27,135 bases of DNA from a virus (lineage: Duplodnaviria; Heunggongvirae; Uroviricota; Caudoviricetes). A model generated the notes under the pieces. It had not been told where the DNA came from. It made no database searches and saw only the letters and a list, made by a program, of their open reading frames with translations. The stretch lies in IMG/VR virus record IMGVR_UViG_2529292920_000017; one strand, written 5' to 3'. A program made the translations under genes and the position numbers. Positions 8,524 to 27,135 of this stretch are shown in pieces (position 1 is the first letter of the stretch; every line of letters starts with the position of its first letter).

Positions 8524-9483
8524 ATGAAAATTTGTATCGATGACGGCTCCACCAACATCAAGCTGGCATGGACTGAGAACGGCGAACGCCGCAACGCCAT
8601 CAGCCCGAACAGCTTCAAGTCGGAATGGTCTGCGCCGTTCGGTGGCACGCAGCCCGCGAACTACATGCTTGATGGCGTGCGCTATGGTTTTGATCCGGTC
8701 AGCGATCGCTTTGTCCAGACGACCGACACGCAATACCAGTACAGCGATGTGAATGTCATTGCCATTCATCACGCGCTGGTCAAATCAGGCATCACACCAC
8801 AGGAGGTGGATGTGGTTGTCACCCTGCCACTGAGCGAATATTTCGACACAAACGCACAGCCGGACATGGCCAACATCAACCGCAAAAAAGCAAACGTCAT
8901 GCGCCCGGTGGCGTACCAGAACGGAAAAGCATTCACTATCCGTAACGTACGGGTTATGCCTGAATCCATTCCGGCTGGTTTTAAAGCACTGGCTGACATG
9001 AGTCCGTTTGAATCCCTGCTGATTGTGGATTTAGGCGGAACCACGCTGGATGTGGCAAAGGTTCAGGGACAACTGGCAGGTATCAGCCAGGTGTTTTGCG
9101 ATCCACACGTAGGCGTTTCCCTGATGGCCGATGCCGTACTGTCGGTGATGGCCACTAACGGTATGCGTACCAGTCACCACATCGCCAATACCATTATCGA
9201 ACATCGCCATGATGAAGCCTGGCTGCGCCAGCACATCCACAATGACGCGCATTACGCCAGCCTGATGGCGGTTATTCGTGAAAAGGAAGAAACACTGAAA
9301 CAACGCGTGATCCGCGCGCTGGCGGGTTTTTCGGGTTACGGGCGGGTGATGGTTGTCGGTGGCGGGGCGGAGATTGTGGCACCCGCTATCCGCGAAGCCT
9401 GCGGAGTTAATGCGACTTTCATCGCGGACGGGGTGCCACAGTTTGCTCTGGTTAATGGGCTGTACGCAATGGACAAGGAGTAA
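8524..9483 (+). CDS. parM: actin-like segregation ATPase ParM/StbA
   Basis: ATG at 8524 with AAGGAAAAG upstream; 319 aa. N-terminus MKICIDDGSTNIKLAW and internal LLIVDLGGTTLDVA are the actin-fold phosphate-1 and phosphate-2 motifs. From memory the protein aligns along its length with plasmid R1 ParM (MLVFIDDGSTNIKLQW..., ...VMPESIPAG..., ...GGGAE...). Confidence 0.85.
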   Translation: MKICIDDGSTNIKLAWTENGERRNAISPNSFKSEWSAPFGGTQPANYMLDGVRYGFDPVSDRFVQTTDTQYQYSDVNVIAIHHALVKSGITPQEVDVVVTLPLSEYFDTNAQPDMANINRKKANVMRPVAYQNGKAFTIRNVRVMPESIPAGFKALADMSPFESLLIVDLGGTTLDVAKVQGQLAGISQVFCDPHVGVSLMADAVLSVMATNGMRTSHHIANTIIEHRHDEAWLRQHIHNDAHYASLMAVIREKEETLKQRVIRALAGFSGYGRVMVVGGGAEIVAPAIREACGVNATFIADGVPQFALVNGLYAMDKE

Positions 9484-21769: not shown

Positions 21770-22370
21770 TTCGTTGTTACCACCATCAGCCAGCAATTTC
21801 ATGCGTTGTGCCGAAGCCGTCGGAACACGCATTACAGACATTCCGGTAGACCTCAACACGCTGTGGTCGCCGGACACCTGCCCGGTGCATCTGCTGCCTT
21901 ATCTCGCCTGGGCGTTTTCCGTTGACCGCTGGGATCGCAACTGGCCGGAAGAGACAAAGCGACAGGTGATTCGTGATGCATGGCTGATACACCGACACAA
22001 AGGGACCATCAGCGCACTGCGAAGAGCCGTGGAGCCTCTCGGCTACCTGATTGAAGTAAAGGAGTGGTGGCAACTCAACGAGGAGCCAGGAACATTTCGC
22101 ATTGTTGTCGGAGTACTTGATCAGGGCATCACCGATGAAATGTATCAGGAACTTGAGCGCCTTATTGCGGATGCAAAACCAGTAAGTCGCCATCTGACGG
22201 GGCTGGCGATCAGCCTGAGTGTGAACGGAAAGATTTTCGTTGGTACGGGATGCTATCACGGCGATGCCCTGACGGTTTATCCCTACACCCCGGAGTCCAT
22301 TATTGTCGAAGGGGATTATTTCCCTGCCCCGGCCATTCATTTAATTGATAATCTGAGAGTAAACGCATGA
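21762..22370 (+). CDS. I: baseplate protein I
   Basis: ORF track 21729..22370; ATG at 21762 overlaps the J stop. LWSPDTCPVHLLPYLAWAFSVDRWD...ERLIADAKPVSRHL matches P2 I as recalled. Confidence 0.85.
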   Translation: MSNSLLPPSASNFMRCAEAVGTRITDIPVDLNTLWSPDTCPVHLLPYLAWAFSVDRWDRNWPEETKRQVIRDAWLIHRHKGTISALRRAVEPLGYLIEVKEWWQLNEEPGTFRIVVGVLDQGITDEMYQELERLIADAKPVSRHLTGLAISLSVNGKIFVGTGCYHGDALTVYPYTPESIIVEGDYFPAPAIHLIDNLRVNA

Positions 22371-23971
22371 CAGTGAAATACTACGCCATTCTGACTAATC
22401 AGGGCGCGGCACGACTGGCTAACGCGACGATGCTCGGCAGTAAGCTGAATCTGACGCAAATGGCCGTTGGTGATGCAAATGGTGTGTTACCAACACCAGA
22501 CCCTGCACAAACAAAACTGATTAACCAGAAACGCATTGCACCGCTGAATCTTCTGAGTGTTGACCCTAACAATCAGAGCCAGATTATTGCGGAGCAAATC
22601 ATCCCTGAAAACGAGGGAGGATTCTGGATCCGTGAGATTGGTCTTTATGATGATGAAGGTGTACTCATTGCGGTGGCAAACTGCCCGGAAACGTACAAAC
22701 CGCAGTTGCAGGAAGGCAGTGGACGCACCCAGACTATCCGCATGATTCTGGTTGTCACGAACACCGAAGCCATCACGCTGAAAATCGACCCGTCTGTGGT
22801 TCTGGCAACCCGCAAATATGTGGATGATAAAATCTCAGAGCACGAACAGTCACGACGTCACCCGGACGCCTCGCTGACCGTAAAAGGTTTTACTCAGTTA
22901 AGCAGTGCAATTAACAGTGAATCAGAAACACTGGCCGCAACACCGAAAGCGGTTAAGGCTGCATATGACCTGGCTAACGGGAAATATACCGCCCAGAACG
23001 CCACCACTACACAAAAAGGAATTGTTCAGCTCAGTAGCGCCACGAACAGCACGTCTGAAACGCTGGCAGCGACACCAAAATCTGTTAAGGCGGTAATGGA
23101 TGAAACGAACAAGAAAGCACCATTAAACAGCCCGGCACTGACCGGAACGCCAACAACACCAACAGCGCCACAGGGGACTAATAGTACCCAGATCGCAAGC
23201 ACGGCTTTCGTTATGGCCGCGATTGCCGCACTTGTAGATTCGTCACCTGATGCACTGAACACGCTGAACGAACTGGCTGCGGCGCTGGGCAATGACCCGA
23301 ATTTTGCGACCACCATGACTAACGCGCTTGCGGGTAAGCAACCGAAGGATGCCACCCTGACGGCGCTGGCAGAGCTTGCTACATCAGCAGATAAACTCCC
23401 ATATTTTACAGGGGCAGATCGTGCCGCGTTAACCGCGTTGACAAGTGTTGGACGTGCCATTCTTGGTAAAACCAGCACTCAGGGAGTTCTTGATTACCTT
23501 GGTTTGGGGGAAGGCTCTGCGCTGCCCGTTGGTGTGCCCGTTCCATGGCCCTCAGCCACGCTGCCAACGGGGTGGCTGAAATGTAACGGCGCAGCATTTT
23601 CTTCTGAAATGTACCCCAATCTGGCAAAGGCCTACCCCACCAATAAATTACCGGATTTACGGGGCGAATTTATTCGCGGCTGGGATGACGGACGGGGCGT
23701 TGATAATGGGCGCAACCTACTGTCTGCACAGTCTGACGCTATTCAGAATATAGTTGGCACTTTTGGGCGTACTCAGCTTTTTAAAGATGCGCTTAATTCA
23801 GGACCATTTAGTCAAACTGACTCTATATTATCAGTAGGCTTACAACCAACTGAGATCATTGAAGGATATGGTGCTTCTGTATGGACATTCGACGCCTCTC
23901 GCTCAGTTCGCACAGCATCTGAAACACGCCCCCATAACATTGCGTTTAATTACATCGTAAGGGCAGCATGA
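22367..23971 (+). CDS. H: tail fiber protein H: constant N-terminal part fused to the currently expressed C-terminal cassette (Hv1)
   Basis: ATG at 22367 overlapping the I stop; 534 aa. N-terminus MTVKYYAILTNQGAARLANA is the conserved P2-type fiber N-terminus. Internal tandem roughly 30-aa repeats (LSSAINSESETLAATPKAVKAA / LSSATNSTSETLAATPKSVKAV). From about 23500 the sequence (GLGEGSALPVGVPVPWPSAT...ETRPHNIAFNYIVRAA) belongs to the cassette family repeated downstream. Confidence 0.9.
   Translation: MTVKYYAILTNQGAARLANATMLGSKLNLTQMAVGDANGVLPTPDPAQTKLINQKRIAPLNLLSVDPNNQSQIIAEQIIPENEGGFWIREIGLYDDEGVLIAVANCPETYKPQLQEGSGRTQTIRMILVVTNTEAITLKIDPSVVLATRKYVDDKISEHEQSRRHPDASLTVKGFTQLSSAINSESETLAATPKAVKAAYDLANGKYTAQNATTTQKGIVQLSSATNSTSETLAATPKSVKAVMDETNKKAPLNSPALTGTPTTPTAPQGTNSTQIASTAFVMAAIAALVDSSPDALNTLNELAAALGNDPNFATTMTNALAGKQPKDATLTALAELATSADKLPYFTGADRAALTALTSVGRAILGKTSTQGVLDYLGLGEGSALPVGVPVPWPSATLPTGWLKCNGAAFSSEMYPNLAKAYPTNKLPDLRGEFIRGWDDGRGVDNGRNLLSAQSDAIQNIVGTFGRTQLFKDALNSGPFSQTDSILSVGLQPTEIIEGYGASVWTFDASRSVRTASETRPHNIAFNYIVRAA
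23487..23512 (+). other. candidate recombination site A (inside H, constant/variable boundary)
   Basis: TTCTTGATTACC-TT-GGTTTGGGGGAA. The right half and central TT are identical to the downstream cassette junctions; the left half is unique H sequence. Confidence 0.5.
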
Positions 23972-23990
23972 AAACGTTGGTTTGGGGGAA
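23965..23990 (+). other. candidate recombination site B (cassette junction)
   Basis: AGCATGAAAACG-TT-GGTTTGGGGGAA. The left half contains the stop codon of the preceding cassette (GCA TGA); the right half encodes the start of the next cassette (LGEG). Confidence 0.55.
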
Positions 23991-24515
23991 GGCTCTGCAC
24001 TGCCCGTTGGTGTACCTGTTCCGTGGCCCTCAGCCACTCCACCAACGGGCTGGCTGAAATGCAACGGCGCAGCATTTTCTTCTGAAGATTACCCCAAATT
24101 GGCACAGGCTTACCCCGCGAACAAATTACCGGATCTACGGGGTGAATTTATCCGTGGCTGGGATGATGGACGTGGCTTGGATGCTGGGCGTGCCTTGCTA
24201 AGTCTTCAGGATGACTCTTTTGAAGCGCACAGGCATGAGTCCTTTTTTTATGCGGGTATTTCACGTAATGAGACCCCATTAAAAAATCTTCCAAGTTCAG
24301 ACGAGATGCTGACTTTAAGTTCCACAACTAATGCCTTGTCCCCGGACAGTATTGATGCCACCAACTCGTTAATTGGTAATGACGATTACAACTGTCTTAT
24401 CGAAGGGAATAAAAATAACAAACGAACAGCGACAGGACTGAGTACCAGTATTGTCGGCACAGCAGAAACACGCCCCCGCAACGTTGCATTCAATTACATC
24501 GTAAGAGCTGCATGA
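23979..24515 (+). CDS. silent tail-fiber C-terminal cassette Hv2 (promoterless; no ATG)
   Basis: ORF track 23982..24515 starts at TTG. Shares the N-terminal roughly 65 aa (GEGSALPVGVPVPWPSATPPTGWLKCNGAAFSSE.YP.LA.AYP.NKLPDLRGEFIRGWDDGRG) and C-terminal ETRPRNVAFNYIVRAA with the H C-terminus; the middle is unique. Protein identical to the minus-strand cassette at 26602..27135. Confidence 0.7.
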   Translation, partial: GLGEGSALPVGVPVPWPSATPPTGWLKCNGAAFSSEDYPKLAQAYPANKLPDLRGEFIRGWDDGRGLDAGRALLSLQDDSFEAHRHESFFYAGISRNETPLKNLPSSDEMLTLSSTTNALSPDSIDATNSLIGNDDYNCLIEGNKNNKRTATGLSTSIVGTAETRPRNVAFNYIVRAA

Positions 24516-24534
24516 AAACGTTGGTTTAGGGGAA
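24509..24534 (+). other. candidate recombination site C (cassette junction)
   Basis: TGCATGAAAACG-TT-GGTTTAGGGGAA; same architecture as site B. Confidence 0.55.
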
Positions 24535-25001
24535 GGCTCTGCACTGCCCGTTGGTGTGCCCGTTCCGTGGCCCTTAGCAACACCACCAACGGGCTGGCTG
24601 AAATGTAACGGTGCAGCATTTTCTTCTGAAATGTACCCCAATCTGGCAAAAGCCTACCCCACCAATAAATTACCGGATTTACGGGGCGAATTTATTCGTG
24701 GCTGGGATGATGGGCGAGGAATTGATGCAGCACGCGCTTTATTGAGCATTCAAACCGGGATGTTGGAAAAACACCGCCATATTGTTGTAGCTAACGATGG
24801 ATATGACACAAAGGATGAATGGGAGTTGGCCACGATTTTCAAAAAACATATACACAAGGCAGGGGGCTTGATGCCACAAATACAGGAGGGAGTTTGATTC
24901 CATCACCAACGCTTCATTCACGAGGAAGTATTGGTAACACAGGTGGTAGTGAAACCCGCCCCCGCAATATTGCATTTAACTATATCGTGAGGGCGGCTTA
25001 G
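24523..25001 (+). pseudogene. tail-fiber C-terminal cassette Hv3, frameshifted
   Basis: The conserved cassette N-terminus (ORF 24556..24897) and the conserved C-terminus ETRPRNIAFNYIVRAA (ORF 24819..25001) are in different frames. The frame changes in the region of an A6 tract at 24841-24846; adding one A would join them into one cassette-length ORF. Confidence 0.6.
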
Positions 25002-25007
25002 TTATAT

Positions 25008-25619
25008 TCAACTGGCTGCTGCCAGTGGTATTTCCGGCAAGTTGATATCTGGTGCCATGTTTATATCCATTGCGTTCAGCGCGTCTATATAATCCAGCAC
25101 GGCGTTAAGCCGGGTGGTTTCTGCCTGCGTCAACTTCCGCCCGGCCTGCAACTTCAACTGAATCAGACTTATGGAAGCCATTGCCGCATCAGCCAGTGAC
25201 TGGCGCTTGGTTTCTGCCGCTTCTACTGCGGCACTATGTTGTGCCTCAGTATCTGTCACCCATTTTTCACCATCCCATTTATCGTATGGTGTCGACGGGG
25301 AGATAGTGGTTGTATTTTTCGGGTAGTCACCTAGCGTCGTGATTTCTTCGGTGTTTCCCGTGTCAGTGTTATAGACGGTTTCACCACGATGATCTGGCGT
25401 ATACTCCCATGAATTTAAATTCTCCGAACGGCGGATAGCATAGCCCGCTTTATGTGCGCCCGGGGCATCTAAACAGGAATTTGCCGGAATACCGACACCC
25501 GCAGCAAGATATTCAGTTGATTCGGAAATATATTCCCGTGTCTCACCATCATAGTTATAAACGACGATGTTTCCTGCCTGTACGGCAATAAGGTCATCAT
25601 TTAATATCGCGTTATTCAT
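25008..25619 (-). CDS. tail fiber assembly protein (Tfa, P2 gpG functional analogue)
   Basis: 203 aa, ATG at 25617-25619 overlapping the stop of cassette Hv4 (TAATG). C-terminal region KRQSLADAAMASISLIQLKLQAGRKLTQAETTRLNAVLDYIDAL is the conserved Tfa chaperone domain pattern. Encoded on the strand opposite to H. Confidence 0.8.
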   Translation of the reverse strand: MNNAILNDDLIAVQAGNIVVYNYDGETREYISESTEYLAAGVGIPANSCLDAPGAHKAGYAIRRSENLNSWEYTPDHRGETVYNTDTGNTEEITTLGDYPKNTTTISPSTPYDKWDGEKWVTDTEAQHSAAVEAAETKRQSLADAAMASISLIQLKLQAGRKLTQAETTRLNAVLDYIDALNAMDINMAPDINLPEIPLAAAS

Positions 25620-26080
25620 TATGCGGTTCTCACAATATAATTGAAGGCAATATTGCGTGGGCGGGTTTCATTCCCCTCTGAGGATTCCGTTCTGTATTGA
25701 CTGGTAAATCTACCGTTAATTGCACCTTGCCGGACGGCGTTATCTGTCGACAACAGACTATCCCCGCCTTTGTCATTTGGCACCAGTACCGTGTTATCCC
25801 ACGCATCCCATGACCGAATATTATGATAATGACTTCCTGTTAACCACCCCTGCATGCTTAAGATGACCCTTCCGGCATCCACCCCGCGCCCATCATCCCA
25901 GCCACGGATAAATTCACCGCGTAAGTCTGGTAATTTATTGGTGGGGTAAGCCATTGCCAGTCTGGGATACATTTCAGAAGAAAATGCTGCGCCGTTACAT
26001 TTCAGCCACCCCGTTGGCGGCGTGGCTGAGGGCCATGGAACAGGTACACCAACGGGCAGTGCAGAGCCTTCTCCTAAACC
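25619..26080 (-). CDS. silent tail-fiber C-terminal cassette Hv4 (minus strand, directly upstream of tfa)
   Basis: ORF track 25619..25972 begins at an internal ATG, but the same frame stays open back to site D and encodes the conserved cassette N-terminus (GEGSALPVGVPVPWPSATPPTGWLKCNGAAFSSEMYP...). Ends ETRPRNIAFNYIVRTA; unique middle. Confidence 0.65.
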   Translation of the reverse strand, partial: GLGEGSALPVGVPVPWPSATPPTGWLKCNGAAFSSEMYPRLAMAYPTNKLPDLRGEFIRGWDDGRGVDAGRVILSMQGWLTGSHYHNIRSWDAWDNTVLVPNDKGGDSLLSTDNAVRQGAINGRFTSQYRTESSEGNETRPRNIAFNYIVRTA

Positions 26081-26094
26081 AACGTTTTCATGCG
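26069..26094 (-). other. candidate recombination site D (inverted orientation)
   Basis: Plus strand reads TTCTCCTAAACC-AA-CGTTTTCATGCG, the reverse complement of the site B/C pattern. Confidence 0.55.
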
Positions 26095-26594
26095 GCTCTT
26101 ACGATGTAATTAAATGCAACGTTGCGAGGGCGAGTTTCTGTACCTACATTTCCACTAATTTCACCAAACCGTTTTACATTACGAGAGCTAATGGCTCGTA
26201 GTGAGGAAGGCACATTTAAACCGGGTTCGTCTGTTTTAACTATTCCCCCGTCCCCGTATGTAGCCAGTATTCCAGGGTTTACTCCTTCCCGTGTACTTCC
26301 CGCGGCAAGTCCATCCCCGGTCCATAATTCCATATAGTGTGCATGATCCAAAATTGTGTGTGGCTGCCAATTAAGCAGAGCGCGGCCAGCATCCACCCCG
26401 CGCCCATCATCCCAGCCGCGAATAAATTCGCCCCGTAAATCCGGTAATTTATTGGCGGGGTAGGCCTTTGCCAGATTGGGGTACATTTCAGAAGAAAATG
26501 CTGCACCGTTACATTTCAGCCAGCCCGTTGGCGGCGTGGCTGAAGGCCATGGAACGGGCACACCAACGGGCAGCGCCGAGCCTTCCCCTAAACC
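26088..26594 (-). CDS. silent tail-fiber C-terminal cassette Hv5 (minus strand)
   Basis: ORF track 26088..26561. Conserved cassette N- and C-termini (…ETRPRNVAFNYIVRAA) with a unique middle (LLNWQPHTILDHAHYMELWTGDG...). Confidence 0.65.
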   Translation of the reverse strand, partial: GLGEGSALPVGVPVPWPSATPPTGWLKCNGAAFSSEMYPNLAKAYPANKLPDLRGEFIRGWDDGRGVDAGRALLNWQPHTILDHAHYMELWTGDGLAAGSTREGVNPGILATYGDGGIVKTDEPGLNVPSSLRAISSRNVKRFGEISGNVGTETRPRNVAFNYIVRAA

Positions 26595-26608
26595 AACGTT
26601 TTCATGCA
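26583..26608 (-). other. candidate recombination site E (inverted orientation)
   Basis: Plus strand reads TTCCCCTAAACC-AA-CGTTTTCATGCA. Confidence 0.55.
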
Positions 26609-27135
26609 GCTCTTACGATGTAATTGAATGCAACGTTGCGGGGGCGTGTTTCTGCTGTGCCGACAATACTGGTACTCAGTCCTGTCGCTGTTCGTTTGTT
26701 ATTTTTATTCCCTTCGATAAGACAGTTGTAATCGTCATTACCAATTAACGAGTTGGTGGCATCAATACTGTCCGGGGACAAGGCATTAGTTGTGGAACTT
26801 AAAGTCAGCATCTCGTCTGAACTTGGAAGATTTTTTAATGGGGTCTCATTACGTGAAATACCCGCATAAAAAAAGGACTCATGCCTGTGCGCTTCAAAAG
26901 AGTCATCCTGAAGACTTAGCAAGGCACGCCCAGCATCCAAGCCACGTCCATCATCCCAGCCACGGATAAATTCACCCCGTAGATCCGGTAATTTGTTCGC
27001 GGGGTAAGCCTGTGCCAATTTGGGGTAATCTTCAGAAGAAAATGCTGCGCCGTTGCATTTCAGCCAGCCCGTTGGTGGAGTGGCTGAGGGCCACGGAACA
27101 GGTACACCAACGGGCAGTGCAGAGCCTTCCCCCAA
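26602..27135 (-). CDS. silent tail-fiber C-terminal cassette Hv6 (minus strand), reaches the window edge
   Basis: ORF track 26602..27135. The translated protein is identical to cassette Hv2 (23982..24515), so the two form a long inverted duplication. The window ends inside the next junction site (TTCCCCCAA at 27127-27135). Confidence 0.65.
   Translation of the reverse strand: MGEGSALPVGVPVPWPSATPPTGWLKCNGAAFSSEDYPKLAQAYPANKLPDLRGEFIRGWDDGRGLDAGRALLSLQDDSFEAHRHESFFYAGISRNETPLKNLPSSDEMLTLSSTTNALSPDSIDATNSLIGNDDYNCLIEGNKNNKRTATGLSTSIVGTAETRPRNVAFNYIVRAA

Follow-up and report, generated by a model that had tools for sequence, protein, structure and literature searches.

In Mu (G segment, Gin), P1 (C segment, Cin), e14 (P segment, Pin) and P88, a serine invertase encoded next to an invertible segment flips that segment and alters the 3' end of a fibre gene. 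The gene for the tail fibre assembly protein (tfa, or U) is carried within the segment and immediately follows the variable part, as it does in the locus described here. Each of these systems pairs two sites and two tips with two tfa genes in mirror image, whereas the present locus combines many tips with a single tfa. A further two-state switch is that of EC958 Phi2, for which the 26-bp sites TCCTCAATTACCTTGGTTTAGGAGAA and GAGAGATAAACGTTGGTTTGGGGGAA have been published (Forde 2014, PMC4134206); the sites reported below belong to the same family. As in our locus, the EC958 Phi2 fibre has a stable part with Phage_fibre_2 repeats and an invertible 3' end encoding a Collar domain, but both of its alleles have a 'minor tail fibre' gene of their own downstream. 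Larger sets of tips have also been described. PCR on a P2-like prophage of E2348/69 revealed three inverted repeats and four coexisting variants (Goldberg 2014, PMC4272514), and the gin-containing tail-fibre shufflon FRphi of Enterobacter produces three C-terminal isoforms at ∼50/25/25% (Nat Microbiol 2026, PMC13418256), as predicted by a three-site layout with one double-ended core.

The whole 27,135-nt stretch of DNA that we analysed (the window) is a P2-family prophage encoding an integrase, replication gene A, ParM, portal, terminase, a P2-type capsid and the baseplate proteins V, J and I. It is 95–96.5% identical to Escherichia phage P88 (Xuanwuvirus) and to PhiR44_2 over ∼81% of its length. 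The gene for the ParM-type, actin-like plasmid segregation protein (8524–9483, plus strand; StbA_N, E 6.9e-82) follows replication gene A, as it also does in relatives.

The fibre gene H (22367–23971, plus strand) consists of a constant 5' part (22367–23503) followed by a Collar domain. The constant part encodes the Phage_tail_fib N-terminal domain (PF12571, E 1.6e-62) and Phage_fiber_2 repeats (PF03406, E 5.7e-41) and ends at the first crossover site; positions 22700–23490 were found at 100% identity in 17 complete E. coli genomes. Downstream of H lie five more promoter-less units, giving six collar-domain tip cassettes in all. Each tip unit has a common collar start (LGEGSALPVGVPVPWP...RGEFIRGWDDGRG), a differing 'head' and the end ETRPRNxAFNYIVRAA. 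The tips are homologous to the 'short tail fiber' structure 9cuy (E 1.6e-25), to the T4 gp37 tip 2xgf (E 7.8e-17) and to T4 gp12.

The tip currently fused to H, Hv1 (type G; 23504–23971, plus strand; 155 aa), combines the collar with a head of the GDAIxNI class and a ETRPHNIAFNYIVRAA end, and matches both 9cuy and 2xgf. Two silent tips follow on the plus strand: Hv2 (type A; 23982–24515; 177 aa; collar PF07484, E 1.9e-14), whose protein is 100% identical to that of the corresponding cassettes in two relatives (L001 and L002), and Hv3 (type D; 24526–25001), which is frameshifted and faces tfa in the core segment described below. Three silent tips occupy the minus strand, namely Hv4 (type C; 25619–26077; 152 aa; HxH head GSHYHNI), the stop codon of which overlaps the tfa start, Hv5 (type B; 26088–26591; 167 aa) and Hv6 (type A; 26602–27135), an exact inverted copy of Hv2. 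The Hv3 frameshift maps to a run of six adenines at 24841–24846, where three relatives (L001, L002 and L048) have seven, and it divides the cassette into ORFs 24556–24897 and 24819–25001. A sequencing error in the homopolymer, a genuine mutation that pseudogenises the cassette, and slippage are all conceivable causes. The tfa-coupled C-type cassette of E. coli LR-62-2 (L053, 6428–6876) is also annotated as frameshifted, so pseudogenised cassettes are not restricted to type D.

Among the heads, types A (EAHRHES), B (DHAHYM), C (GSHYHNI) and D (EKHRHI) carry an HxH motif and recall the metal-binding motifs of T4 gp37 and gp12. Types F and G form a second class with the motif GDAIxNI, like PDB 9cuy. 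The D-type heads show an unusually extreme protein conservation at saturated synonymous divergence.

Five complete 26-bp sites of the form N12-TT-GGTTTRGRRGAA are present in the window, three in plus orientation (starting at 23487, 23965 and 24509) and two in minus orientation (26069 and 26583); 0.05 occurrences of the crossover core pattern would be expected by chance. Site 1 (23487–23512; TTCTTGATTACC TT GGTTTGGGGGAA) is fixed inside H, and its left half-site is the one that marks the H side in four relatives as well (L001, L002, L048 and L049). It is followed by site 2 (23965–23990; AGCATGAAAACG TT GGTTTGGGGGAA) and site 3 (24509–24534; TGCATGAAAACG TT GGTTTAGGGGAA), and by the inverted sites 4 (26069–26094; CGCATGAAAACG TT GGTTTAGGAGAA) and 5 (26583–26608; TGCATGAAAACG TT GGTTTAGGGGAA). 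A sixth, outermost site in minus orientation is cut by the window end, which leaves its right-hand 9 nt (TTGGGGGAA, 27127–27135). One site lies immediately 5' of each unit and one at the matching point inside H. In their length of 26 bp, their asymmetric central dinucleotide and their occurrence as inverted copies, these sequences agree with the sites of the Gin/Hin/Cin/Pin/Min (Din) group, and they resemble hix, gix and cix.

In five relatives (L001, L002, L048, L052 and L053) a recombinase of 199 aa is encoded directly beyond the outermost site, and it matches the Mu Gin structures 3uj3 and 4m6f over its full length (E 1e-90). The relatives' invertase genes start ∼50–70 nt past the site; in L002, for example, the site is at 8663–8688 and the invertase at 8742–9341. 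By analogy, we infer that a Gin-like invertase gene lies just beyond the end of the window. After the outermost site the complete relatives continue with the recombinase, a hairpin and then, on the opposite strand, gpU-T-E-FII-FI. In L047 (31467–40832) the FI-FII-E-E'-T-U operon is convergent with V-W-J-I-H, unlike the arrangement in P2, with the invertible region and the invertase gene occupying the space between these operons.

The minus-strand ORF at 25008–25619 encodes a protein of 203 aa that Pfam assigns to Caudo_TAP (PF02413; E 3.4e-32, score 111.8, cut-off 22.1) and PHROG to family 105, 'tail fiber assembly' (E 1.8e-91). When all six-frame ORFs of the window were searched with a hidden Markov model (HMM) built from 44 Tfa homologues, this ORF was recovered with E 1.6e-88 and no second Tfa was found, the best remaining hit having an E value of 0.84. 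Sequence searches returned no structural relative of Tfa in the PDB, and no NCBIfam model covers the window protein.

The Hv4 stop codon TAA (25621–25619) and the tfa start codon ATG (25619–25617) have one base in common, forming TAATG; on the minus strand the junction reads ...CGCATAATGAATAAC and, in its longer form, ...CGCATAATGAAT.... The gene is directly 3' of, and co-oriented with, a fibre 3' end, that of cassette C, which is the gene position described for Caudo_TAP members. Coupling of a tip to tfa was also seen in the large majority of homologous loci with a readable upstream tip. The Shine-Dalgarno sequence of tfa is weak (GAGA), as is that of H. On its other side tfa is convergent with Hv3, whose stop codon ends at 25001, 6 nt from that of tfa at 25008. 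H, which is fused in frame to Hv1, has no co-oriented tfa downstream inside the window, which ends in the outermost site. The canonical P2 H-G order, with tfa right after the expressed H on the same strand, is accordingly absent from the captured isomer; it is present in the isomers of five relatives (L049, L136, L146, L149 and L161).

An earlier sequence-only reading of this DNA had described a sole Tfa-like gene on the minus strand, overlapping Hv4 in TAATG, convergent with plus-strand Hv3 and leaving the H-Hv1 fusion without a co-oriented chaperone, and had noted the shared ETRPRN.AFNYIVR C-terminus of the cassettes. Our results bear out each of these points, the missing chaperone within the limits of the window. 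The same reading would have been overturned by a second, co-oriented tfa just past the window. The window is indeed truncated, and the type phage P88 carries tfa twice, in mirror image. All relatives with this cassette family, however, run from the outermost site straight into the invertase, the terminator hairpin and gpU, and none of the complete relatives examined has a second tfa beyond the cassettes. The claim survives, and we regard a hidden second copy as next to negligible in probability.

The layout of the window can be written H>G>A>[D tfa' C']<B<A<. With more than two sites, a double-ended segment and the constant part outside, it has the organization of a Min-type multiple-inversion region. 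No crossover site separates D from tfa. The C-tfa pair and the facing D tip form a core on either side of which the single-ended cassettes A, B, E, F and G are found. This core is common to the window, every complete chromosomal relative examined and 19 IMG/VR loci. When all inversions open to the window layout were enumerated, 240 isomers resulted, and tfa was co-oriented with H in exactly half of them. Whenever C is expressed tfa is co-oriented, and whenever D is expressed it never is.

The antisense tfa is very probably part of a Gin/Min-type multiple DNA-inversion region on a P88-like backbone. In the mechanism that we propose, the serine invertase encoded just past the window would recombine 26-bp sites that share an asymmetric TT core, one of them within H and one ahead of each promoter-less tip cassette. 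With each inversion the constant part of H would acquire another receptor-binding tip with a collar domain. The tfa gene is translationally coupled to the C tip (Hv4) and, together with the facing D tip (Hv3), makes up the innermost, double-ended segment. Recombining the H site with the C site restores the canonical P2 order H-C-tfa. The tips other than C, and D certainly, would then have to function without a co-oriented tfa. The frameshift in the window's Hv3 counts against this account.

Orientation counts from related loci are consistent with free inversion of this kind. Of 39 assemblies, 18 have tfa in the orientation of H and 21 have it antisense. Among the complete E. coli records containing both H (at least 99% identity) and tfa, 12 of 27 were co-oriented and 15 of 27 antisense (binomial p 0.70 against 0.5), and the IMG/VR loci were divided six to six. 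Two assemblies of the same strain, EPEC E2348/69, are a whole-region inversion apart. NC_011601 reads H-X/D/tfa'C'/inv, with tfa antisense, and CP059840.2 reads H-C-tfa/D'/X'/inv, which is the canonical P2 H-G order, the left half-sites having been exchanged. The four assemblies of the O127:H6 E2348/69 lineage contain at least two, and apparently three, states. The segment has been captured in both orientations in relatives of the window only. The antisense tfa is one ordinary, expected state of an already known tip-swapping switch in P2-type E. coli prophages: in the H-Hv1 isomer the core points away from H, which places tfa on the opposite strand. The earlier suggestion of an alternative state of an invertible segment is upheld by the sites, by the relatives' invertase and by E2348/69 in both states. 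'Off', its label for this state, does not fit, since the fibre tip Hv1 is expressed all the same.

Part of the window layout is probably not that of a single molecule. Positions 23982–24539, comprising Hv2 and its downstream site, are the exact reverse complement of 26578–27135 (558 nt, 100%), and the sixth crossover site is cut off after 9 nt by the window end. In the complete chromosomal loci L001, L002, L048/L049 and L052 every cassette type occurs once, whereas five draft assemblies (L142, L148, L150, L154 and L155) contain inverted single-cassette duplicates or palindromic layouts. One P1-like plasmid record (L045) also has its A-type cassette twice. Mixed isomers are known to yield artefactual duplications (Forde 2014, PMC4134206), and the inverted Hv2/Hv6 pair is probably such a mixed-isomer assembly artefact, produced by a contig that walks through two isomers. 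The two candidate source molecules are H>G>A>[D tfa' C']<B< and H>G>[D tfa' C']<B<A<. In both of them tfa is antisense to H-Hv1, so the observation holds either way.

The duplicate and the contig end inside a crossover site, together with the palindromic or chimeric drafts (L142, L148, L150 and L154) and the published warning (Forde 2014, PMC4134206), could be taken further, to mean that the orientation itself is purely an assembly artefact and that no real molecule has tfa antisense to an expressed H. This is exceedingly improbable, given that both possible source molecules have the antisense arrangement and that complete, duplicate-free genomes have it too, among them L002 and L048 and, in all, 15 of the 27 complete records. 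As a more general caution, assemblies of such loci break at crossover sites and duplicate cassettes in inverted form, and gene order there should not be read as that of one molecule.

Having placed tfa within the switch, we turned to the relationship of its product to tips other than C. When D cassettes facing tfa were compared with D cassettes with identical heads that are accompanied by a tfa of their own or lie in P1-like arrays, dN/dS was 0.00–0.03 at a dS of ∼0.9–1.1. Against D cassettes linked to a tfa, those facing tfa showed ∼32 synonymous and 0–5 non-synonymous changes in 86 codons; between lineages (L002 versus L057, and others) the D-type heads differed by ∼32 synonymous and 0–2.5 non-synonymous changes over the same length, and within the tfa-facing class (L092 versus others) dN/dS was 0.03–0.05 at a dS of ∼0.4. 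Judged by these codon comparisons, the D tip is under strong purifying selection though it is never co-transcribed with tfa. Such constraint argues against antisense isomers as dead ends, and it implies either that Tfa is dispensable for such tips or that tfa is expressed regardless of orientation. The sequence-only reading had proposed that a shared Tfa would be co-expressed 'only after inversion'; this fails for the D tip, which always faces tfa and yet is strongly conserved.

The strictest form of dependence would make one Tfa essential for all collar tips, acting through the ETRPRNxAFNYIVR end or the collar, and produced solely from a gene in the orientation of H. The direction of tfa would in that case add a second ON/OFF layer, with fibre-defective particles arising from antisense isomers. 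In keeping with this, the collar and the C-terminal strand are common to all cassettes, D tips elsewhere keep a coupled Tfa, close relatives of Tfa accompany unrelated heads, including D-like and F/G-like ones, and no above-chance promoter was detected upstream of tfa. However, D is never expressed with a co-oriented tfa and still shows a dN/dS of ∼0.01–0.05, where a nonworking tip should decay, and hundreds of E. coli genomes and two phage backbones stably carry the one-tfa design. We therefore consider an essential Tfa that is made only in the co-oriented state to be quite improbable.

The partners of related Tfa proteins bear on the milder alternatives. In most IMG/VR loci with a D-type tip, D heads of 97–100% protein identity precede a coupled Tfa of their own, 74–78% identical to that of the window. 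Tfas whose N-terminal domains are 69–73% identical accompany unrelated heads, D-like and F/G-like ones included, a pattern that fits a shared chaperone. The T4 gp37 tip, which is homologous to the tips described here, requires gp38. A chaperone dedicated to C is favoured by the constant coupling of tfa to C, by the weak GAGA Shine-Dalgarno sequence and by the separate tfa for each tip in Mu, P1 and P88. A shared chaperone is favoured by the related Tfas on unrelated heads and by the D heads that have their own Tfa elsewhere. These same two observations, along with the need of gp37 for gp38, argue against the notion that non-C tips need no Tfa. On balance, we give slightly less than an even chance to the non-C tips folding without Tfa, and we hold more tentatively that tfa is supplied by an orientation-independent route that escaped detection.

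Searches for such a route gave little. Sigma-70 promoter predictions in the invertible region numbered three against 4.7 expected, none of them well placed for tfa, and L047 gave the same result. No Ogr-type TGT-N12-ACA box was found in the fibre region of the window, although this strict pattern also misses the phage's own P/O late-promoter region. L047 has a TGT-N12-ACA palindrome between the outermost site and the invertase ATG (34588–34605), with no suitably spaced leftward -10 element; it is probably a chance occurrence. Between the gpU and invertase stop codons of L047 there is also a perfect 12-bp hairpin with flanking A and T runs (35210–35239), which looks like a candidate bidirectional terminator. 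Read-through from the convergent FI-FII-E-T-U operon was considered as a source of antisense tfa expression and is unlikely, as this terminator-like hairpin lies between.

Inside Hv4 the sequence TTAACA (25843–25838, minus strand) is followed after 14 nt by TAATAT, the whole element spanning 25843–25818 on the minus strand; the consensus promoter scan did not report it. The stretch in which it lies, C codons 71–90, has the fewest synonymous variants (1/24) among 22 distinct copies, with a post hoc p of 0.02. The element is possibly an internal tfa promoter, or else a coincidence with the codons of the HxH motif. As a test for an embedded promoter, the synonymous-site profile of the C cassette proved too weak, the post hoc dip at codons 71–90 being its only feature.

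Expression of one Tfa for all tips from a promoter inside the C cassette, independent of orientation, would nonetheless have its attractions. The C cassette is the only sequence that is always upstream of tfa, the constraint on D would be reconciled with the usual partnership of D with a Tfa, and TTAACA-N14-TAATAT sits in the C stretch with the fewest synonymous variants. Its spacer is not optimal, however, the consensus scan passed over it, the p value is post hoc, and the low diversity may mean no more than that paralogues do not exchange sequence by gene conversion in the head region. We rate such a promoter as unlikely. We place the same low confidence in the fuller proposal, that a shared Tfa would recognize the invariant collar or the ETRPRNxAFNYIVR strand and be made from the C-cassette element whichever isomer is present. 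Were it correct, a multi-tip switch would need only one chaperone gene, whichever way that gene points, and the conservation of D despite its lack of co-transcription with tfa would be accounted for.

The preferred reading, a Gin/Min-type inversion region with tfa in its core, is in most respects that of loci already described. For the engineering of phage and tailocin host range it matters whether collar tips need their own Tfa and whether one Tfa can serve many of them, and the combination of one chaperone with many tips is the sole non-routine part of this locus. The prophage of EPEC E2348/69 has an H that is 99.9% identical and a tfa that is 97.7% identical, the same sites and the same C-tfa/D core, with three sites and three tips against the six sites of the window. 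Inversions between its sites would span ∼2.0 and 1.6 kb, and the inversion sizes published for the PCR-validated locus are about 2.2 and 1.8 kb (Goldberg 2014, PMC4272514). Matching that published locus by its number of repeats and its inversion sizes, we conclude that the window locus is most likely essentially the E2348/69 shufflon.

FRphi is likened to the window by layout alone. Its related loci have up to six paralogues and its isomers have been locked by deletion of gin, and the paper makes no mention of a tail fibre assembly gene (PMC13418256). R64-type shufflons likewise use multiple invertible segments to swap the C-terminus of an adhesin, in their case the PilV tips. They differ in relying on the Rci tyrosine recombinase and sfx repeats, whereas the present locus has hix/gix-type sites and, in its relatives, a Gin-like serine enzyme, and it is not a member of that group.

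The Min system of p15B (E. coli 15T-) and those of P1-like phage-plasmids share the site family of the window. On P1-like plasmids the cassettes are 87–92% identical at the nucleotide level, the invertase shares 97% identity with that of the chromosomal loci, and up to 13 cassettes again accompany one tfa coupled to a C-type tip. The topology of p15B-type Min is also the same, with single-ended cassettes around one double-ended segment. For p15B Min, Sandmeier et al. in 1990 and 1992 reportedly arrived at 240 isomers, equal to our enumeration for the six sites of the window. The two differ in backbone, which is P88-like and P2-family here and P1 there, and in the constant part, P2 H versus P1 S. 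On the P1-like plasmids another cassette type faces tfa, and D belongs to the single-ended array. The C-tfa-D core around which the chromosomal switch is arranged is comparable to a Mu G segment with only one U gene.
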